Part shown: in pieces, positions 1,882-61,816 of the stretch
Layout: each line of letters opens with the position of its first letter
How positions within the stretch are numbered: position 1 is the first letter of the stretch
Source: Gammaproteobacteria bacterium
GTDB lineage: Bacteria; Pseudomonadota; Gammaproteobacteria; UBA4575
Direction: 5' to 3'
Length of the DNA: 64,000 nt
Assembly (NCBI GenBank): GCA_045105615.1
Contig: JBGCDS010000027.1
Coordinates: 3,036 to 67,035 of the forward strand
Position numbers and translations under genes: made by a program
The notes under the pieces: generated by a model
Databases searched by the model: none
Told to the model about the DNA's origin: nothing
Seen by the model: only the letters and a program-made list of their open reading frames with translations

Positions 1882-3045
1882 GTGACCAGTATCAAACAAG
1901 CCATTCAATATGGTCGCGAGTTATTAACCAATAAAGTCTACAACCCTCAGCAGGAAGCATCCCTCCTACTTGGATACAGCATCAATAAAACTAAAGAGTT
2001 CTTAATTTCTCATTCTGATGAATCAATCAGCGAGATTTCATTTCAACACTACCAAGCATATCTATCACGTCGTGCCAAAGGGGAGCCCATCGCCTATATT
2101 CAGCAACAAAAAGAATTTTGGTCGCTAGATTTAAAAGTAACTCCCGCAGTATTAATCCCTCGGCCAGAAACAGAATTAATTATTGAAATCGCCCTTCAGC
2201 TTTTACAAGGGAAAAATCATGCGAACATTCTAGATCTAGGCACCGGCAGTGGTTGCATTGCACTAGCAATCGCAAAAGAAAAACCTGATGCGCTTATTAC
2301 TGCCTGTGACAACTCTTCGGATTGTATTGATATTGCTAAAATTAATGCACAAAAACACGCACTTGATAACATTACCTTTATCACCAGCAATTGGTTTCAG
2401 TCAGTAGACACTAATAACTTCGATATCATTATCAGCAATCCACCTTACATCTCTAATGATGACGAGGATATTGAATACGGAGTACAAAAATACGAGCCTA
2501 AGCCTGCACTATTCTCGAGCAGACAAGGATTAGAAGATTTATTTCACATTATAAATCACGCACCTAATTATTTATCTTCTAACGGGACATTATTAGTTGA
2601 GCACGGTTATAAACAAGGCAACGATGTTCGCACACAGTTTAGTAAATGCGGTTACAATAACGTTCAGACTTTACATGACATACAACAACTTGAACGCGTT
2701 ACCCAAGGAACGGCGGCTAAATTAATGGACCTAAAAACTGACGAAGACGGATTCTTACTTGACCCAGAAGATTGGGATGAAGATTTCGCATTATCTACCG
2801 CTAAAGAAACAGAGTTAGAATTAAATCAAGATCATTGGCGCGTCATTCATATGATACGTCAACTTTATTCCGACTCTGGCGTGGTTCCTGAGCTGCGTAC
2901 TATTCTAAAAAATTTACGTCAAGAGATAGGTAAAGATAACGCAACACGAAAATATGTGTATGCATTATTCCCATATGGCTACGGTCAACAGGGTTGCAAA
3001 ATTGCTGGCATGCGCAAACCACTGAAACTATGGTTAGATCTATAA
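1882..3045 (+). CDS. prmC: release-factor glutamine methyltransferase PrmC/HemK (res 1-~278, NPPY motif) fused in frame to a ~109-aa TusE/DsrC-family domain
   Basis: GTG start; LDLGTGSGCIA SAM motif, ISNPPYI motif; C-terminal MDLKTDEDGFLLDPEDW...HWRVIHMIRQLY...RKYVYALFPYG..GCKIAGMRKP matches TusE/DsrC architecture but ends LKLWLDL (no penultimate Cys). Confidence 0.8.
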   Translation: MTSIKQAIQYGRELLTNKVYNPQQEASLLLGYSINKTKEFLISHSDESISEISFQHYQAYLSRRAKGEPIAYIQQQKEFWSLDLKVTPAVLIPRPETELIIEIALQLLQGKNHANILDLGTGSGCIALAIAKEKPDALITACDNSSDCIDIAKINAQKHALDNITFITSNWFQSVDTNNFDIIISNPPYISNDDEDIEYGVQKYEPKPALFSSRQGLEDLFHIINHAPNYLSSNGTLLVEHGYKQGNDVRTQFSKCGYNNVQTLHDIQQLERVTQGTAAKLMDLKTDEDGFLLDPEDWDEDFALSTAKETELELNQDHWRVIHMIRQLYSDSGVVPELRTILKNLRQEIGKDNATRKYVYALFPYGYGQQGCKIAGMRKPLKLWLDL

Positions 3046-3073
3046 CACCTCTAAAACTAACAATATAAAATTA

Positions 3074-3081
3074 CCCCCCCC
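3074..3081. repeat. homopolymeric C8 tract in 290-bp intergenic region
   Basis: ttaccccccccctaaaac seen directly; unusual in ~40% GC context. Confidence 0.6.
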
Positions 3082-3336
3082 TAAAACATAGCGATACATT
3101 TCGCTAACTCGTATTACACGTACACAGATCAGCGGCCACTAACAACCGATGAGCTGTTGCACCTAATTTGGCTATTTCTAGTCACATACATAAGTCCGCA
3201 GATAATCAATTAATTATAGCGGTTCGTCTTAGTGGCCTATAACCTTAGCCGGCAACTCAACTATTGTGACCACAATCACAATAGCTGCTTAGCTAGTCAC
3301 TAAGCCAACAAATCTATCCAGAGAGGATTTTTCTCA

Positions 3337-3834
3337 ATGCTTAAACTTATCCAAGTATCTGTTCTTTCTTTCATATGCGCATTTGCCACTCAATTTGCTT
3401 ACTCCGCTAGTGTCGGTGATGACGCACCCTCATTTCGCGCTCGCTCATTAGATGGCTCTGAAACTATCAGTAAAGCAGACCTTGAAGGAAAAGTAGTATT
3501 TGTAGATTTCTGGGCATCCTGGTGCCCGCCTTGCCTTAAATCATTACCCGAATTTGAAAATCTACAGACCTCATTTTCAGGCAGAGATGATGTCGTTGTG
3601 ATTGCAATCAACCTTGATGAAAACCCTAAAGATGCCACTGACTTCATCAACAAGATCAATGTCTCTTACAAAATTCTTGCCGACCAATCAGGTCAAATAC
3701 CAGAAGCCTTTGGTGTTAATGCCATGCCAACCTCATATGTCATCGATCAGTCAGGTGTGATTCGCTATGTTCATAGCGGATACAAATCAGGTGACGTGGA
3801 TAAAATCAAAAATGAGATTGAAAAATTACTATGA
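3337..3834 (+). CDS. TlpA/ResA-family periplasmic thiol:disulfide oxidoreductase (thioredoxin fold)
   Basis: signal peptide then WASWCPPC active site; 165 aa. Confidence 0.85.
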   Translation: MLKLIQVSVLSFICAFATQFAYSASVGDDAPSFRARSLDGSETISKADLEGKVVFVDFWASWCPPCLKSLPEFENLQTSFSGRDDVVVIAINLDENPKDATDFINKINVSYKILADQSGQIPEAFGVNAMPTSYVIDQSGVIRYVHSGYKSGDVDKIKNEIEKLL

Positions 3835-4049
3835 AAATCAAACTTAGCATTGTCTTTATTATTCTCATGACATTAGTCACCTCAGGTTGCACTGCAGTAA
3901 AACCTTGGGAACGTGGCACTCTTACCAAGAAAGAAATGGCGTGGTCACCTGACCCACTCGCGGCAACACTAGGCGAACACATTTACTTTGCTAAAGAAGC
4001 TGCTGCTGGCGGATACGGATCTGCAGGAGGCGGTTGCGGTTGCAACTAA
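3831..4049 (+). CDS. small lipoprotein with C-terminal GGGCGCN tail (DUF4266-like)
   Basis: lipobox LVTSGC, 72 aa, Gly/Cys C-terminus; start overlaps upstream stop (ATGA). Confidence 0.6.
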   Translation: MKIKLSIVFIILMTLVTSGCTAVKPWERGTLTKKEMAWSPDPLAATLGEHIYFAKEAAAGGYGSAGGGCGCN

Positions 4050-4054
4050 AACAA

Positions 4055-5272
4055 AAGCCAATGTCTTATACTAAAAAACAAACGTTAAGCCCTACCGTAG
4101 CAGCTTTATATTCTGCAGCATTTGCATTACCCGCTTACAATAAAGCAGTAGAAGCAGCTTCGCCAGATAGCGAACCTAGCATTAGTGCGCGTGTATCAAA
4201 ATACGAAGAGGATCGGCTAAGCAGTAGTAACTTCTCTGGCCTAGGAGATCAAGAACGTTACGACATTGAAATAGGACAGGTTAGCGTTGTGTATCCCATC
4301 AATGACACAATGCAACTCACAGTAAATAGTGCATATGAAAAAATGAGTGGTGCCTCTGCTTGGTTTGTTCAACCTGATGCTGAAGGCAATCCAGAGCAGG
4401 TCATGAGTGGCGCAACCATTGATGATGAACGCTTGGATGCAAGTGCAAAACTGGATATTTACAAAGGCAAATACACTATTAGCCCAAGCATTGGATTCTC
4501 AACCGAAAAAGATTATCAAGCAATATTCGGCGGCGTGTCAGTCGCACGTGAGTTAGATAATAAATCAACGACACTCCGCGGTGGAATATCCGCTTCTTTT
4601 GACGAGGTAAAACCAACATCAGATCCGGACATTGACCCTGGCCGTATCGATAAAGAAGATAAAGAAAATATTAGTGCCTTTGTTGGTATTGGGCAAGTTA
4701 TCAATAAGAACACTGTCGTTCAGTCCACCTTCACACTCGGACACCTATCTGGATTTTTATCTGACCCTTATAAATTAGTATTTAATTCTGCACTGCCTGG
4801 ATTACGAGATAGTCGCCCAGATGACCGTACCCAATATATATGGTCTGCGCAGCTAAGACGTTGGTCAGAAACTTTATCTGCAGCATTGCATGCAGACTAC
4901 CGATTCTATTATGACGATTGGAATATTCGTTCACATACATTAGACCTTGGATTTTTAAAACATACCGATAGCGGTTGGAGTTTTGAATATTCAATGCGCT
5001 ATTACAGCCAAACACAGGCTGATTTCTATGAGCCATTTTACAACGCTGTACGCTCAGATGGTTATTACTCAAGTGATTATCGCCTATCACCTTATGGAGC
5101 GTTGTCATTCCGTGTAAAACTTGCCGAAACAATCAACAACTGGACATTAGGCGTATCCGCTGAAAGATATATCAGTGATAAATCTTATTCATTGCAAAGT
5201 GTCGACGTGGAAAATCCAGGCTTGGTTGACTTCACCCTATTCACATTTGGAGTGGACTATTCATTTAAATAA
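4055..5272 (+). CDS. exported beta-rich protein, DUF3570-like (alternative TTG start 4034)
   Basis: ~400 aa, N-terminal hydrophobic signal-like segment, alternating beta-strand-like composition, aromatic-rich C-terminus (VDYSFK). Confidence 0.55.
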   Translation, partial: KPMSYTKKQTLSPTVAALYSAAFALPAYNKAVEAASPDSEPSISARVSKYEEDRLSSSNFSGLGDQERYDIEIGQVSVVYPINDTMQLTVNSAYEKMSGASAWFVQPDAEGNPEQVMSGATIDDERLDASAKLDIYKGKYTISPSIGFSTEKDYQAIFGGVSVARELDNKSTTLRGGISASFDEVKPTSDPDIDPGRIDKEDKENISAFVGIGQVINKNTVVQSTFTLGHLSGFLSDPYKLVFNSALPGLRDSRPDDRTQYIWSAQLRRWSETLSAALHADYRFYYDDWNIRSHTLDLGFLKHTDSGWSFEYSMRYYSQTQADFYEPFYNAVRSDGYYSSDYRLSPYGALSFRVKLAETINNWTLGVSAERYISDKSYSLQSVDVENPGLVDFTLFTFGVDYSFK

Positions 5273-5274
5273 TC

Positions 5275-6177
5275 ATGGAAATTTATAATTTTCCATTTCG
5301 CGCGATGGGCAGTCCGTGCGAGTTTCAACTCTATACTTCAGATAAAGACACTGCTGAACTCGCGTGCAAAAAAGCGCATTCAGAAGTCACACGCCTAGAA
5401 AAAAAATATTCACGCTATCGTACCGATAGCGTGACCAACACCATCAACAAATCTTCTGGCAATTTAACAGGCATTAAAGTCGATAGTGAAACAGCGTTAC
5501 TTTTAGACTATGCGCAGGCTGTTTACAAACAGAGCGAAGGTTTATTCGATATTACTTCCGGCGTATTAAGACGCGCATGGAATTTCAAATCAAACCAATT
5601 ACCCACACAGAGCCAAATTGATGAAGCACTAGAATTAGTTGGCTGGCAACATGTCGAATGGCAACGCCCACATATTGTACTGAAGAAAAAAGGTATGGAA
5701 ATCGATTTTGGTGGTTACGTAAAAGAATATGCTGTAGATGCTGCAGCAAACACATTACGCAGTTATGGCATTAACGCCGGCCTAGTTGATTTGGGTGGTG
5801 ATATTAAAGTATTAGGCCCACACCCAGACAATAAGCCCTGGCAAATTGGTATCAGACATCCTAGAGACCCGGCTAACGCCATTGCCACCACCACGTTAGG
5901 ACAGGGAGCCATTGCGAGCAGCGGTGACTATGAACGTTTCATTACTATCGAAGGTAAGCGCTATGCGCATATCCTTAACCCAAAAACAGGCTGGCCAATT
6001 GAAGGATTTAGTGCTGTTAGCGTGATTGCTAGTGAATGCTTAATCGCTGGAAGCTGTTCAACTGTTGCCATGTTGAAAGGTGAGCAAGACGGAAAGTCCT
6101 GGCTTGATTCGTTAAAACTTCCTTATATTAGTGTTAATAAAGACATGCATGTAGAAGGCACTACCAACATCAGTTAA
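5275..6177 (+). CDS. apbE: FAD:protein FMN transferase (ApbE family), no signal peptide
   Basis: 300 aa ApbE-like sequence; in-frame stop 3 codons upstream excludes a leader peptide. Confidence 0.75.
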   Translation: MEIYNFPFRAMGSPCEFQLYTSDKDTAELACKKAHSEVTRLEKKYSRYRTDSVTNTINKSSGNLTGIKVDSETALLLDYAQAVYKQSEGLFDITSGVLRRAWNFKSNQLPTQSQIDEALELVGWQHVEWQRPHIVLKKKGMEIDFGGYVKEYAVDAAANTLRSYGINAGLVDLGGDIKVLGPHPDNKPWQIGIRHPRDPANAIATTTLGQGAIASSGDYERFITIEGKRYAHILNPKTGWPIEGFSAVSVIASECLIAGSCSTVAMLKGEQDGKSWLDSLKLPYISVNKDMHVEGTTNIS

Positions 6178-6596
6178 TTCAAATTCAGTAACACTCTCAC
6201 TTTTGGTGTAAGCAAATCTTCAAGCGTATAATCATCAAGCACAGACAAAAATTGATCCAACGCCCGCGTAAAAATAGTTGCCAATTTGCAACTCGGTGTT
6301 AGCACACATTGATTCTCAGTAGAGAAACATTCCACCAAATCGAAACTTTGTTCTGTCGCACGCACTACTTCACCTAAATTAATCGCTGCTGGTTCGCATA
6401 CCATCTCTAGGCCGCCACCCTTTCCACGAATCGACTGTATAAACCCTAACGTGGCTAACTGATTCACAACTTTGACCAGGTGATTTTTAGGTATCGCATA
6501 GCTCTGTGCAATTTCATCAATCGTACAACGACGATCGGCACTCGCCAGATAAATTAACGTTCTTAAAGCAAAATCGCTGTATTTAGTTAAGCGCAT
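6174..6596 (-). CDS. nsrR: Rrf2-family transcriptional repressor, NsrR/IscR-like with 3 Cys cluster
   Basis: MRLTKYSDFALRTLIYLA wHTH N-terminus; C-x6-C-x5-C (CFSTENQCVLTPSC); divergent from globin genes. Confidence 0.8.
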   Translation of the reverse strand: MRLTKYSDFALRTLIYLASADRRCTIDEIAQSYAIPKNHLVKVVNQLATLGFIQSIRGKGGGLEMVCEPAAINLGEVVRATEQSFDLVECFSTENQCVLTPSCKLATIFTRALDQFLSVLDDYTLEDLLTPKVRVLLNLN

Positions 6597-6609
6597 AGTA
6601 ATAATTCTG

Positions 6610-6666
6610 TTGACATTAACATACATATTATATACATTTTATAAACATACATAACAAATACATCTT
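6610..6666 (+). promoter_or_regulatory. sigma70-like promoter (TTGACA-17-TACATT) overlapped by repeated ATACAT motifs including AAATACATCTT NsrR-type half-site
   Basis: seen in sequence between nsrR and trHb gene; four ATACAT repeats. Confidence 0.5.
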
Positions 6667-6680
6667 TAAGGGGGATATTT

Positions 6681-7049
6681 ATGTCAAATAGCTTATTTGA
6701 ACGAATTGGTGGCGATGCTGCTGTCGGAGCAGCCGTTGATATTTTTTACCAAAAAGTGATTTCTGATGACCACATTAATGGCTTTTTTGAAGGCGTTGAT
6801 ATGTCCAAACAGATGCGCAAAATGAAATCTTTCTTATCTTACGCATTCGGTGCTGACACACCCTTCCAAGGTGAATCTATGCGCACTGCACATGAAAGAC
6901 TAGTCAAGCAAGGATTAAACGACAGTCACTTTGACGCAGTAAAAAATCACATCGATAGCACATTAAAAGAATTAGATGTCGCTCAACCTCTAATTGATGA
7001 AGTGTTAAATATTACTGAGTCGACTAGAAATGACGTACTTAACAAATAA
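6681..7049 (+). CDS. truncated haemoglobin, group I (trHbN-like)
   Basis: 122 aa; FERIGGDAAVGAAVDIFYQKV...GFF pattern typical of 2/2 globins. Confidence 0.8.
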   Translation: MSNSLFERIGGDAAVGAAVDIFYQKVISDDHINGFFEGVDMSKQMRKMKSFLSYAFGADTPFQGESMRTAHERLVKQGLNDSHFDAVKNHIDSTLKELDVAQPLIDEVLNITESTRNDVLNK

Positions 7050-7119
7050 ACACTCAACTAATACTACATAGATGTATTAATAAGAGAGATTCTTTGTAAT
7101 TTCACTAGCGAGGTGAATC

Positions 7120-7569
7120 ATGGAAAATATAAGCGAGCAAACAAGACACATCTTAAAAGATACTGAACATCTTCTATGGGAAAAACAAGTCGAAGTCACG
7201 ACTCGAATGTATGAGATATTGTTTGAAAAATATCCTGAGACCAAAAATTTATTCCAGAGGTTTCGCTCGCATCAACCTAATATGTTTGCGGCTGCACTTA
7301 TGGCTCATATGATGAGCTTAGACGAACCTGAAGAGCTTCTTAGCTTACGGGTTGGTATATGCCGCAACCACGTTATTGCTGGCGTTAAAGAAGAACATTA
7401 CCCCATGCTGGCAGATGCATTGATCTCAGCTATGAGAGAACTACTATCTGAGCAGATGGATGAAAACACTATCGCTGCCTGGGAAAAATGGTACTACTTT
7501 CTTGCCAATCTCCTTATTGAGAGAGAAAGAGATCATTACCAGGAAAAGCATCTACTATTTCCTAAATAA
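7120..7569 (+). CDS. single-domain globin (Vgb/Hmp globin-domain-like)
   Basis: 149 aa; alignable to flavohaemoglobin globin domain (..YPETKNLFQ.. / ..WEKWYYFLANLLIERERDHY). Confidence 0.7.
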   Translation: MENISEQTRHILKDTEHLLWEKQVEVTTRMYEILFEKYPETKNLFQRFRSHQPNMFAAALMAHMMSLDEPEELLSLRVGICRNHVIAGVKEEHYPMLADALISAMRELLSEQMDENTIAAWEKWYYFLANLLIERERDHYQEKHLLFPK

Positions 7570-58573: not shown

Positions 58574-59425
58574 ATGTTCGAAACCAACCCTTTTGCTGTA
58601 CTTTCAGCATATATTTCCCCTGAGATCATGCAAGGCTACGTCATTCTGATGTTTATCTTTGTTGTTGCCGGCACGATTCTCGACATGATGCACAAAAAAA
58701 GTGCGCAGTACTTCTTTGAAAATGCTGAGAAAGCAAAAAAGAATGCAAAACGCACTGTAGGCGGTGGAGAGAAGATATCCATGGCCGTCGCGACAGTGGC
58801 AAATGAGGTATTAACCTCTGGCGAATTCAAGAGCACACGCCGTAGACTGTCTCATCTATTAACAATGTATGGTTTCATTATTTTTGTTGCCACTACTGCA
58901 TGGTTGATTTTCAATTACACCTCAGAAGCAGCTGCTGCACCTACCGCATTGACAACAATGTGGCATGTTGGCGCCATTATGCTTTGCCTAGGTGGTTACT
59001 GGTTTTGGTTCTTCATCCGTGTTGACGTCGCCTCTGAAGGCGTGAAGTGGTACAACTTCAACGGTCGTGGTGACATTTTCATTGTTTCTTTGATCACAAC
59101 AGGCACTTTCGCATTATTATGGTCAGGTACGCTAGCCAGCGGCGGATTACTCAACGTAATCGCCTTTGTCTTATTCATTGTATCTAGCACAATGTTGTTC
59201 AGCACTGTATTTTGGTCGAAGTTTGCACATATGTTCTTCAAGCCTGCTGCAGCGTTCCAAAAGCGCACTACTAAGGCTGATGGTTCATTTGAAAATCTGC
59301 CTGAAGTCGGCGATCTTTCAGATCCTGCTATTCAATCAAAATTCCCGGATATCCCAGAGTATATGGGCACAAATCCACCAAACATGGGCCAAGGTATCAA
59401 ACGTGAAGCCCCAAGCCATTATTAA
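58574..59425 (+). CDS. aprM: putative AprM-type membrane anchor of adenylylsulfate reductase
   Basis: 283 aa, ~5 TM, GGAGG RBS, immediately upstream of aprBA; assignment by synteny/topology. Confidence 0.5.
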   Translation: MFETNPFAVLSAYISPEIMQGYVILMFIFVVAGTILDMMHKKSAQYFFENAEKAKKNAKRTVGGGEKISMAVATVANEVLTSGEFKSTRRRLSHLLTMYGFIIFVATTAWLIFNYTSEAAAAPTALTTMWHVGAIMLCLGGYWFWFFIRVDVASEGVKWYNFNGRGDIFIVSLITTGTFALLWSGTLASGGLLNVIAFVLFIVSSTMLFSTVFWSKFAHMFFKPAAAFQKRTTKADGSFENLPEVGDLSDPAIQSKFPDIPEYMGTNPPNMGQGIKREAPSHY

Positions 59426-59453: not shown

Positions 59454-59936
59454 ATGCCTACTTTTGTATATATGACTCGTTGCGATGGTTGTGGACATTG
59501 CGTTGATATCTGCCCTTCAGACATCATGCATATCGACACTACTACCCGACGTGCTTACAACATTGAGCCAAACATGTGCTGGGAGTGTTACTCCTGCGTT
59601 AAGGCTTGCCCACATAATGCTATCGACGTTCGTGGTTATGCTGACTTTGCTCCACTAGGTCACTCAGTACGAGTAATTCGCGATGAAGAGAAAGGTGTTA
59701 TTGCCTGGCGTATTAAATTCCGCAACGGCAAGAAAGACATGAATCTGTTAGCTCCGATTACAACTAAACCTTGGGGTACAGCTATTCCGAATCTATCGGA
59801 TGAATCTGCTCCTAGTAAGGATATGACTGATAGCCAGCTACTTTTCAATGAGCCGAAATACATCCGTTTGGATGAAGGTGGTTTACATACGCTTGAGTCT
59901 AACGGCTTGAAGATGAAAGAAGGAGTTTACTACTAA
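59454..59936 (+). CDS. aprB: adenylylsulfate (APS) reductase beta subunit
   Basis: two [4Fe-4S] motifs CDGCGHCVDICP / CWECYSCVKACP; 160 aa; followed by aprA. Confidence 0.85.
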   Translation: MPTFVYMTRCDGCGHCVDICPSDIMHIDTTTRRAYNIEPNMCWECYSCVKACPHNAIDVRGYADFAPLGHSVRVIRDEEKGVIAWRIKFRNGKKDMNLLAPITTKPWGTAIPNLSDESAPSKDMTDSQLLFNEPKYIRLDEGGLHTLESNGLKMKEGVYY

Positions 59937-61816
59937 TGGGTTATAAAACTGTTGTAGAAGATGACATTGATGTACTGATCACTGGTGCTGGCATGGCCGG
60001 TACCGGTGCTGCATTCGAGTCTAGATATTGGGGCAAGGACAAGAAAATTGTCATTGCTGAGAAAGCAAACATGGATCGCTCAGGTGCAGTTGCACAGGGT
60101 CTATATGCTATCAACACATATATGGGAACTCGTTTCGGTGAAAACAATCCTGAAGATCACGTACGTTACGCGCGTATGGATTTGATGGGTATGGTACGTG
60201 AAGATTTGCTATTTGATATGGCTCGCCATGTTGATTCAGCAGTGCACCAATTCGAAGAATGGGGTTTGCCATTAATGCGTGATCCTAAGACCGGTGCTTA
60301 TCAGCGCGAAGGTCGTTGGCAGATCATGATTCACGGTGAGTCATACAAGCCTATCGTGGCTGAAGCTGCTAAAAAATCAGCAGACAAAGTATTCAACCGT
60401 ATCTGTGTTACTCATTTGTTAATGGATGATGCAAAAGAAAATCGTGTTGCTGGTGCTGTTGGCTTCAACGTACGTACGGGTGATTATCACGTATTCAAAT
60501 CTAAAGCTGTTGTTTGTGCTGCCGGTGGCGCGTCAAATATCTTCAAGCCTCGTTCAGTGGGTGAAGGTGCAGGTCGTGTTTGGTATGCACCATGGTCATC
60601 AGGTTCAGCTTACGGCTTGCTAATTGAAGCAGGCGCGAAAATGACACAGATGGAAAACCGTATTGTGTTAGCGCGCTTCAAAGACGGCTACGGTCCAGTA
60701 GGTGCTTACTTCTTACACCTTAAGACTTACACACAGAATGGTGTCGGCGAAGAGTATGAGTCAAAGTGGTTCCCTGAATTATCGAAAATGGTTGGTAAAG
60801 AATACCTCGATACAGAAGGTCAGCATTTATCTCATAAACCAATTCCAACTTGCTTACGTAACCATGCATTCATCAACGAAGTAAATGCAGGTCGCGGACC
60901 GATTCACATGGTTACCATGGAAGCGTTCCAAGATCCTCATCTTGAAGAAATTGGTTGGCATAACTTCTTAGGTATGACAGTTGGTCAAGCCGTCCTTTGG
61001 GCAGCAACTGACGTCGATCCTAAATATGAGAACCCTGAACTAACAACTTCAGAGCCATATGTAATGGGTTCACATGCCACCGGTTGTGGTGCATGGGTCT
61101 CAGGTCCAGAAGATATCGCACCAGATGAGTACTTCTGGGGTTACAACCGTATGACAACAGTTGAAGGTCTATTCGGCGCAGGTGATGCTGCTGGTGGTAC
61201 ACCACACGCATTCTCTTCTGGCTCATTCACAGAAGGTCGTTTAGCTGCTAAGGCTGCATGCAAATACATCGATGATGGAAAAGCAGAAGGCATTAGAGTT
61301 TCTCAAGAGCAAATTGATAGACGCGGTGAGCAAATCTTCAAGCCGATGGAACATTATAAAATCTATCGCAATGAGATTACTGCGGGTTCAGTCAATCCTA
61401 ATTACATCAACCCACGTCAGGGTCTTGATCGCTTGCAAAAGCTAATGGACGAGTACGCTGGTGGTGTAACTGTTAGCTATATGACCAACGACAAGCTACT
61501 TAACATCGGTCTCAAGAAGATGAAGATGCTTGAGGAAGACTTAGAGAAGATTGCTGCTGAAGATATCCATGAGTTACTTCGCGCATGGGAATTAAAGCAT
61601 CGTCAACTCTCTTCTGAAGCTGTGTTACAACACACTTTATTCCGCAAGGAAACTCGTTGGCCTGGTTACTACTACCGTGGTGACGCGATGAAACTAGATG
61701 ACCAAAATTGGCATGTATTAACTGTTTCACGTCGTGATCCTAAAACTGGTGAGTACACCATGGAAAAAGCTCCTTGCTATCACTTAGTTAGTGATGCAGA
61801 GGAAAAAGTTGCGTAA
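59936..61816 (+). CDS. aprA: adenylylsulfate (APS) reductase alpha subunit (FAD)
   Basis: 626 aa; LITGAGMAGTGAA FAD motif; fumarate-reductase-like fold; start overlaps aprB stop. Confidence 0.9.
   Translation: MGYKTVVEDDIDVLITGAGMAGTGAAFESRYWGKDKKIVIAEKANMDRSGAVAQGLYAINTYMGTRFGENNPEDHVRYARMDLMGMVREDLLFDMARHVDSAVHQFEEWGLPLMRDPKTGAYQREGRWQIMIHGESYKPIVAEAAKKSADKVFNRICVTHLLMDDAKENRVAGAVGFNVRTGDYHVFKSKAVVCAAGGASNIFKPRSVGEGAGRVWYAPWSSGSAYGLLIEAGAKMTQMENRIVLARFKDGYGPVGAYFLHLKTYTQNGVGEEYESKWFPELSKMVGKEYLDTEGQHLSHKPIPTCLRNHAFINEVNAGRGPIHMVTMEAFQDPHLEEIGWHNFLGMTVGQAVLWAATDVDPKYENPELTTSEPYVMGSHATGCGAWVSGPEDIAPDEYFWGYNRMTTVEGLFGAGDAAGGTPHAFSSGSFTEGRLAAKAACKYIDDGKAEGIRVSQEQIDRRGEQIFKPMEHYKIYRNEITAGSVNPNYINPRQGLDRLQKLMDEYAGGVTVSYMTNDKLLNIGLKKMKMLEEDLEKIAAEDIHELLRAWELKHRQLSSEAVLQHTLFRKETRWPGYYYRGDAMKLDDQNWHVLTVSRRDPKTGEYTMEKAPCYHLVSDAEEKVA

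Follow-up and report, generated by a model that had tools for sequence, protein, structure and literature searches.

Méheust et al. (2021; eLife 10:e66878, PMC8238504) started from 'orphan' apbE genes in genomes without a flavin mononucleotide (FMN)-binding-domain protein and found DUF3570, a family with two conserved [S/T]GA[S/T] motifs, encoded beside them. According to the parts of that paper dealing with this family, DUF3570 of Chlorobium luteolum is flavinylated on co-expression with its cognate ApbE, and loss of flavinylation requires mutation of both serines; the flavinylated protein was produced in Escherichia coli by a cloning strategy that truncated the signal peptide and was recovered from the insoluble pellet. 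The same parts describe a cluster of ApbE, DUF3570, a thioredoxin-like protein and DUF4266 in over 500 genomes, DsbD being encoded in 227 of the clusters and missing from 316, name it the 'DsbD system', mention a VIT1 iron transporter in 25 clusters and propose a hybrid thioredoxin-like/flavinylation electron-transfer system that is fed by DsbD and has an 'uncertain' function. DUF3570 is not mentioned in a 2024 follow-up in mSystems (PMC11334425) or in a 2025 review of ApbE in JBC (PMC12052999), and a literature search for a flavinylated outer-membrane barrel under other names found nothing. Here we analyse an operon of this kind at positions 3337-6177 of a 64,000-nucleotide stretch of gammaproteobacterial contig JBGCDS010000027.1, which we refer to as the window.

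The best explanation overall, and one that we hold to be likely, is that the operon is a copy of the published cluster in which a predicted, doubly flavinylated outer-membrane barrel would take part in a thiol-to-flavin relay. We are highly confident that the locus is a member of that cluster and that its DUF3570 protein is the predicted target of the ApbE encoded next to it, at Ser99 and Thr119. This assignment is based on homology to the C. luteolum system, which was tested by experiment, and FMN on the window protein is a prediction. The four open reading frames (ORFs) are far beyond chance expectation, all four Pfam matches exceed their gathering cut-offs, and 3337-6177 is a genuine four-gene operon with confirmed identities. 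Its parts are as follows.

3337..3834, + strand: thioredoxin-fold gene, encoding an exported, TlpA/ResA/DsbE-like thiol:disulfide oxidoreductase (Pfam Redoxin 1.2e-27, AhpC-TSA 3e-26)
3831..4049, + strand: DUF4266 lipoprotein gene, 72 amino acids (aa) (PF14086 1.6e-22)
4061..5272, + strand: DUF3570 gene, 403 aa (PF12094 9e-65), encoding a predicted 16-strand outer-membrane beta-barrel and ApbE substrate
4346..4357, + strand: flavinylation motif 1, SGAS, aa 96-99 (numbered from ATG 4061), with predicted FMN acceptor Ser99
4406..4417, + strand: flavinylation motif 2, SGAT, aa 116-119, with predicted FMN acceptor Thr119
5275..6177, + strand: gene for a leaderless ApbE FAD (flavin adenine dinucleotide):protein FMN transferase, 300 aa (PF02424 8.6e-80)
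3046..3336, + strand: upstream intergenic region of 291 nucleotides (nt), the presumed promoter region of the operon

The original prediction, made from the DNA letters and their translations, had named the same four proteins, including an exported CPPC thioredoxin and a lipoprotein ending in GGGCGCN, and these identities are borne out by Pfam and by a check of the sequence. The family names DUF4266 and DUF3570, proposed there, are confirmed by hidden Markov model matches (the 1.6e-22 and 9e-65 listed above), and the description of the third protein as a barrel agrees with the structural model and fold search below. That prediction also stated that no flavin acceptor lies next to apbE and that the target is unknown. 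This part does not hold: DUF3570 is the acceptor by analogy with the C. luteolum mutagenesis (PMC8238504, in the parts noted above), and the acceptor is not missing because the third gene itself encodes the ApbE substrate. Likewise, the term 'uncharacterised' no longer applies to the cluster and its flavinylation step, both of which are already published (PMC8238504), and remains correct for the physiological function, which is not.

It has been shown elsewhere that ApbE takes FAD and attaches FMN through a phosphoester bond to the last Ser/Thr of both DUF3570 motifs, a result that is transferable to the window pair. SGAS and SGAT are near-invariant in an alignment of 77 DUF3570 homologs (41-94% identity), and exactly two [ST]GA[ST] motifs are found in 60 of the 89 homologs from other loci. 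The window protein scores 219.5 bits against PF12094 (cut-off 25), and the family has 2002 representatives at E ≤ 1e-3 in a 50%-clustered library. A search for the target motif, as had been proposed, finds it twice in DUF3570 and nowhere in DUF4266; the lipoprotein was considered as a second flavinylation target and rejected for want of an [ST]GA[ST] motif.

We modelled DUF3570 with AlphaFold 2 from the 77-sequence alignment. The model has a predicted local distance difference test score of 87 and a predicted template modelling score of 0.83, with disorder confined to the first 32 residues, and DSSP assigns 16 long strands to it. Seven turns of 2-5 residues lie on the side of the termini and loops of 2-27 residues on the opposite side, and a fold search identifies a closed antiparallel barrel resembling solved outer-membrane proteins. 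In all 16 strands one face is more hydrophobic than the other, clearly so in most and marginally in b2. Conserved residues are situated almost wholly on the polar face, among them Y48, E50, R124, S147, E149, Y152, D181, R256, R266, H277, D279, R281, D285, R313, Y315, Q317, E368 and Y370. Because they cluster there, the model indicates a conserved and charged lumen, unlike that of an open porin. Conservation is lowest in the turns, with a mean top-residue frequency of 0.22-0.38, and highest in loops L2, L5 and L7 (0.55-0.60), which are modelled with high confidence.

The ends of the protein were also inspected. DUF3570 starts with a basic n-region, an Ala-rich, weakly hydrophobic h-region and an AxA-like site, and its C-terminus reads ...YSFK, with Phe at -2; most homologs end in Phe, as typical substrates of the barrel assembly machinery (BAM) do. 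On the strength of the model, the fold search and the strand pattern, DUF3570 is very probably an outer-membrane barrel, and the insolubility of recombinant C. luteolum DUF3570 (PMC8238504, as described there) fits an outer-membrane protein made without its signal peptide. After Sec-dependent export, it would be inserted by BAM as a 16-strand barrel with a charged lumen. Residues 1-33 (4061-4160) are unusually conserved for a leader, with the consensus 'ALxALTSAALALPG' in alignments A2 and A3; among 76 representatives sharing only ~30-40% identity, L16 reaches a conservation of at least 90%. Besides directing export, this signal-peptide-like segment might have another role, such as docking to ApbE or to a chaperone.

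The loop that connects barrel strands 3 and 4, L2 (aa 98-119), contains both acceptor residues. In the model, strand 3 ends in ...MSG, a short hairpin follows (100-105 and 111-115), and strand 4 begins directly past SGAT. Since strands 3 and 4 neighbour each other in the barrel wall, Ser99 and Thr119 must, if the model is right, sit side by side at the base of the hairpin and thus form a two-flavin site opposite the periplasmic turns. Outer-membrane proteins canonically have their termini and short turns in the periplasm and their long loops outside. By this rule, L2 would be extracellular, or folded into the lumen from that side; its placement relative to the lumen was read from the secondary-structure string of the model.

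ApbE matches PF02424 with 268.5 bits (cut-off 25.6) over profile positions 1-258 of 266, and its catalytic and FAD/Mg-binding motifs (GG-D, SGDYE and H-IL-P-TG) are conserved relative to Thermotoga maritima ApbE (1vrm, E 2e-41). The N-terminus is MEIYNFPFRAMGSPC, with nine residues ahead of AMG, where the Pfam domain begins. An in-frame TAA (5266-5268) three codons 5' of the ATG leaves no room for a leader in this frame, and the N-terminal hydrophobic maximum (the highest 10-residue Kyte-Doolittle mean) is 0.30, compared with 2.50 for the thioredoxin, 3.35 for DUF4266 and 1.77 for DUF3570. The lack of a signal peptide and the stop codon upstream had both been pointed out in the original prediction, correctly. 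Against the E. coli ApbE profile, the alignment pairs residue 10 with position 41, with ~30 N-terminal signal residues absent, and a score of 113.8 bits against NF007774 (cut-off 498) places the protein outside the periplasmic lipoprotein type of ApbE.

Three ApbE orthologs from other contexts begin at the same point, the start of the catalytic domain. We then applied a leader test that is independent of start codons to the DNA of 66 loci, and no hydrophobic, signal-peptide-like sequence precedes the ApbE domain in any of them. The distance from the DUF3570 stop to the ApbE AMG codon has a median of 36 nt and is 90 nt or less in 55 of the 66. As judged from these sequences, a leaderless ApbE is a defining trait of the whole cluster type and not peculiar to the window. 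Downstream of the start, residues 10-15 (5302-5319) correspond to a motif that reads AMG[S/C]PC in ApbEs of this cluster type, at a position where canonical ApbEs have AMGT. All four sequences of alignment A1 and nearly all 66 loci have the Cys, which may be a clade marker or a redox-sensitive residue.

Because ApbE is leaderless in 66 of 66 loci while its substrate has an N-terminus resembling an export signal, we lean towards attachment of FMN in the cytoplasm, before export. ApbE would then act on the unfolded DUF3570 precursor, which would be exported post-translationally by Sec. That an unfolded substrate can be modified in the cytoplasm is indicated by C. luteolum DUF3570, which received its flavin inside E. 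coli and was found in the insoluble fraction (PMC8238504). SecYEG can reportedly pass chains bearing groups of the size of FMN, in translocation studies with dye-conjugated preproteins. A cytoplasmic ApbE is known from Klebsiella, where it serves a soluble fumarate reductase that is itself cytoplasmic (PMC12052999). Export of pre-flavinylated DUF3570 by the twin-arginine translocation pathway was considered and rejected: a twin-arginine motif is missing from most members, the window protein (KK) among them, and export in a folded state is not possible for a membrane barrel.

The thioredoxin-fold protein has an N-terminal signal peptide and a WCPPC active site (CPPC at 3523-3534). WCxxC is kept in its homologs, mostly as CGPC, CPPC or CAPC, and the closest solved relatives are 3gl3, a 'putative DsbE' (1e-26), and ResA. 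Its NCBIfam scores are 101 for ResA (cut-off 170), 75 for DsbE (cut-off 123) and 56 for TlpA (cut-off 230). By sequence, it is a TlpA/ResA/DsbE-like member of the superfamily and an ortholog of none of the three; the label 'TlpA' used earlier was too specific.

DUF4266 aligns to positions 1-50 of the 50 in PF14086 with 80.6 bits (cut-off 27). It has a TSGC lipobox (Cys codon at 3888-3890) with Thr at +2, and a lipobox-like motif is present in 73 of 84 homologs, in which the +2 residue is mostly A, T or S. The +2 rule of E. coli is used to predict lipoprotein sorting, and on this basis the prevailing A/T/S predicts that DUF4266 is sorted to the outer membrane. A glycine-rich stretch, AAAGGYGSAGGGCGCN, runs ahead of the C-terminal GGGCGCN (CGC at 4035-4043). 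The exact GGGCGCN is found in 75 of the 84 homologs and a terminal CxC in all 84. Cysteine is absent from DUF3570 of the window and from 60 of 76 diverse representatives, and since the barrel has none, any dithiol/flavin chemistry must use cysteines in trans. The only candidate for a natural fusion of DUF3570 with DUF4266, thioredoxin or ApbE among the proteins collected is a likely artefact. This protein, P0016 (361 aa, 10 contigs), joins DUF3570 residues 1-285 to the last 85 residues of ApbE and is either an operon deletion variant circulating in the population or an assembly artefact.

The GCGCN at the end of DUF4266 (4035-4046) resembles the 'GCGC' of the MYXO-CTERM signature (bioRxiv 10.1101/2023.06.07.544157). 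We rejected the tail as a CTERM sorting signal, as it ends right past CGC, without a transmembrane segment or Arg cluster. In a few species, a JDVT-CTERM protein with full-length homology is reported to adjoin DUF4266/DUF3570/TlpA clusters (bioRxiv 10.1101/2023.06.07.544157); the window encodes no such protein.

To follow the gene order, we gathered 91 related loci (given L numbers below) in 51 lineage groups by a metagenome scan seeded with the closer alignment A2; a search of genome contigs with a single protein returned six close relatives, all from metagenome-assembled genomes of uncultured Gammaproteobacteria. The order thioredoxin-DUF4266-DUF3570-ApbE recurs in three unrelated chromosomal contexts and is complete in at least 52 of the 91 loci, the remainder being mostly short, truncated contigs. 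The neighbourhood is thus conserved, as the original prediction had stated. L010 has DsbD directly upstream of the four genes, and a DsbD membrane domain is found nearby in 5 of the 27 loci having at least 4.5 kb of upstream sequence. No DsbD (PF02683), second ApbE or paralog is encoded elsewhere in the 64-kb window, and the window copy fits, as an unexceptional case, the published class in which DsbD is not co-localised (316 clusters in the tally quoted from PMC8238504).

Beyond the core, no gene family is shared by more than 9 of the 51 groups. Downstream of the cluster and convergent to it, 9 groups have a secretin (937 aa, with AMIN, Secretin_N and Secretin domains) and 8 have a small OMP_b-brl protein (L010 10217-13960, with equivalents in L031 and L045). 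This pair is probably clade-specific synteny and is the sole recurrent neighbour besides DsbD.

In the proposed mechanism, the partner thiols of the DUF3570 flavins would be the invariant CGC ending the glycine-rich DUF4266 tail, kept in redox exchange by the periplasmic CPPC thioredoxin, which in turn would be fed by a DsbD encoded elsewhere. The path would thus run from cytoplasmic thioredoxin through DsbD, the TlpA-like protein and the DUF4266 CGC to the FMN pair of the barrel, and on to an acceptor at or beyond the outer membrane. The segment from the thioredoxin over CGC to the FMN pair is tentative, and we would put it slightly below an even chance; it is suggested, not proven, by the published proposal (PMC8238504, in the parts describing this cluster), the cysteine-free barrel and the invariant tail. 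If the relay exists, electron flow is somewhat more likely to be outward and reductive, fed by DsbD, because DsbD adjoins wherever the cluster encodes a membrane partner. In a more far-reaching version, which we consider doubtful, the barrel, the lipoprotein and the thioredoxin would together carry electrons through the outer membrane as a heme-free conduit whose barrel is flavinylated before export. The flavinylated chain would pass SecYEG and BAM, leaving the FMNs side by side in a surface-side or lumen loop; the DUF4266 tail would thread the barrel from the periplasm, and its CGC, recharged by the TlpA-like protein and DsbD, would reduce the flavins, which in turn would reduce an acceptor at the cell surface.

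Several points weigh against the proposed mechanism. We know of no precedent for Sec export of a chain carrying two FMN groups. The membrane side of L2 follows from a topology rule applied to a predicted model, and the thioredoxin falls under every NCBIfam equivalog cut-off. The window is without DsbD, which is rare in the other neighbourhoods as well (the 5 of 27 given above). Finally, the link of thioredoxin and DUF4266 to the flavins combines the proposal in the published cluster description (PMC8238504) with inference.

A reversed electron flow through the same components is a rival reading that we regard as unlikely. The barrel flavins would then work as an Erv/QSOX-type sulfhydryl oxidase, making disulfides rather than delivering reductant. 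Electrons from periplasmic dithiols would reach FMN via the thioredoxin and the CGC shuttle of DUF4266, and O2 or some other oxidant would finally take them up. The Erv shuttle disulfide has just this architecture, with a CxC on a flexible tail beside a flavin (PMC3509050), and most clusters have no adjacent DsbD, both in the published tally (316 versus 227, PMC8238504) and in the loci examined here. Moreover, the organism of the window is apparently a sulfur oxidiser (AprA and AprM). Nevertheless, proteins of the TlpA/ResA/DsbE-like kind usually act as reductants. In our loci, as in the published description (PMC8238504), any membrane partner encoded beside the cluster is DsbD, a supplier of reductant, and the outward, reductive relay is therefore preferred. 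The site of flavinylation is a separate matter. It is improbable that FMN is added in the periplasm, either by a second, leader-bearing ApbE acting during the chaperoned transit of DUF3570 or by the cluster ApbE after export by an unrecognised route. Such a view draws on the canonical ApbEs, which are periplasmic lipoproteins, and on a cytosolic Salmonella ApbE that failed to complement (PMC12052999); also, the analysis covers 64 kb of the genome, and a second ApbE is possible elsewhere. However, the cluster ApbE is not only leaderless at all loci tested but also has fully conserved catalytic motifs and is tightly coupled to DUF3570, with the short stop-to-AMG distance given above. In addition, according to the parts of PMC8238504 cited, DUF3570 made in E. 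coli receives its flavin in the cytoplasm from a leaderless cognate ApbE, and the clusters were found via orphan apbE in genomes without an FMN-binding-domain protein. These observations argue for attachment in the cytoplasm.

With a similarly small probability, the Cys tail of DUF4266 is a metal site (Cu/Fe), or a modification or sorting site, rather than a redox shuttle. In the metal version, the thioredoxin would keep the DUF4266 site reduced for metal handling, in the way that TlpA serves ScoI/CoxB; TlpA takes part in the maturation of these copper sites. Metal binding had been raised in the original prediction, the MYXO-CTERM signature also contains 'GCGC' (bioRxiv 10.1101/2023.06.07.544157), and VIT1 occurs in the 25 clusters mentioned in PMC8238504. 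Yet no metal chaperone or transporter recurs in the neighbourhoods examined, and the lack of a transmembrane segment or Arg cluster past CGC speaks against sorting. A metal site would also leave unexplained why a cysteine-free, doubly flavinylated barrel always follows as the next gene.

The genes of the operon are closely packed. An ATGA at 3831-3834 contains both the stop codon of the thioredoxin gene and the start codon of the DUF4266 gene, and only 2 nt separate the DUF3570 stop (5270-5272) from the ApbE ATG at 5275. Of the two start/stop overlaps claimed originally, the first is confirmed. The second, between DUF4266 and DUF3570, exists only if DUF3570 starts at the TTG at 4034, where its longest ORF opens (4034-5272). 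Because a 94%-identical relative (L001) starts at the equivalent ATG and the N-termini of the family agree, the true start is probably ATG 4061, 11 nt past the DUF4266 stop, and the overlap is probably not real. At the downstream end, the ApbE stop overlaps a convergent Rrf2/NsrR-like gene by 4 nt. No credible Rfam RNA, FMN riboswitch included, was found upstream of the operon in a search of 2900-6800 up to E = 1, the sole match being a chance microRNA hit inside a coding region. Promoter-like sites are not enriched over shuffled sequences, and the promoter and terminator scans were uninformative for the operon.

Upstream of the operon, the gene at 1882-3045 (+) encodes a fusion protein: PrmC, the release-factor glutamine methyltransferase, makes up aa 1-280, and a DsrC/TusE-like domain (PF04358 1e-31) continues in the same frame as aa 283-382. 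The contiguous in-frame arrangement is also found in L013 and L002; in L003 the domain is adjacent in another frame, L011 also has it, and it is absent from L001, L004, L005 and L012. The tail of the fusion, ...GCKIAGMRKPLKLWLDL, apparently has no penultimate Cys, a residue that is essential in DsrC/TusE. Downstream, the Rrf2/NsrR-like regulator (6174-6626, -) is divergent from a truncated Bac_globin (6681-7049), and a single-domain globin resembling the N-terminal part of Hmp follows at 7120-7569. The region 6174-7569 is a probable nitric-oxide stress module. For the regulator and the first globin, L001 has likewise arranged ORFs (140 and 122 aa) whose lengths are similar or equal, and the module is probably unrelated to the flavinylation cluster because it is absent from the cluster's other contexts. 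Further away, an AprM-like membrane protein (58574-59425) and adenylylsulfate reductase AprA (59936-61816) were recognised by visual inspection of the translations. These two proteins and the DsrC-like domain suggest a sulfur-oxidising gammaproteobacterium as the source of the window.

The system is present in hundreds to thousands of bacterial lineages. It poses a topological puzzle, in that a presumably cytoplasmic flavin transferase is paired with a predicted outer-membrane barrel substrate whose modification sites would face away from the periplasm. If the relay is true, it would provide a flavin/thiol electron route to the outer membrane that is independent of multiheme cytochromes, with possible relevance to iron acquisition, oxidant defence and extracellular electron transfer. 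Should the conduit version also be true, DUF3570 would be the first covalent outer-membrane flavoprotein and the first case of ApbE flavinylation ahead of membrane translocation.

Compared with the 'DsbD system' as described in the parts of PMC8238504 concerned with it, the window has the same four families in the same order, two DUF3570 motifs and the C-terminal CxC of DUF4266, without an architectural difference. The thioredoxin-like partner is given there as PF13899, whereas the separate thioredoxin, here and in the loci that we examined, matches Redoxin, AhpC-TSA and Thioredoxin_8, and PF13899 forms the C-terminal part of DsbD. The barrel fold, the position of the flavin site and the leaderless ApbE, as far as model and sequences indicate them, go beyond the cluster description in those parts of the paper (PMC8238504).

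The canonical ApbE systems with FMN_bind substrates (NqrC, RnfG, NosR and PplA) share the transferase family, the target motif and the catalytic motifs with this locus. They combine a small soluble FMN_bind substrate with an ApbE that has a lipoprotein signal, whereas here the predicted substrate is a beta-barrel and ApbE has no signal. The AMGSPC of the window ApbE also differs from the canonical AMGT. Like the cytoplasmic ApbE of Klebsiella pneumoniae (PMC12052999), the window enzyme is leaderless and would act in the cytoplasm. The Klebsiella substrate stays there, whereas the barrel bears a putative signal peptide, so its modification would precede export. The reductive relay from DsbD to TlpA, CcmG and ResA uses the same WCxxC thioredoxin-fold superfamily, and DsbD adjoins the cluster in some relatives; the window protein is nonetheless an ortholog of none of these, and no genes for the maturation of cytochrome c or copper centres are nearby.

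The closest functional analogy for the DUF4266 tail is the shuttle disulfide of Erv-family enzymes, a Cys-X-Cys, CxxC or Cx4C that sits on a flexible tail and passes electrons to the flavin (PMC3509050). There is no kinship in sequence or fold with Erv, ALR or QSOX: here the FMN would be covalently bound to a barrel, the shuttle would be a separate lipoprotein, and DUF3570 has no flavin-proximal CxxC. Porin-cytochrome conduits of the MtrCAB type differ in that they use hemes, which are absent here, where the cofactors would be on the barrel itself. The MtrB barrel has ~26 strands, compared with 16 in DUF3570. Lipoproteins inserted into barrels are known from RcsF with OmpA/C/F and from LptDE, and a corresponding insertion of DUF4266 is hypothetical. 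The 16-strand channels BcsC, PelB, PgaA and CdiB/FhaC share 8-13% identity with DUF3570, a likeness of fold and not of family. Unlike these channels, DUF3570 has no TPR/POTRA periplasmic domain and no polysaccharide or two-partner-secretion genes nearby.

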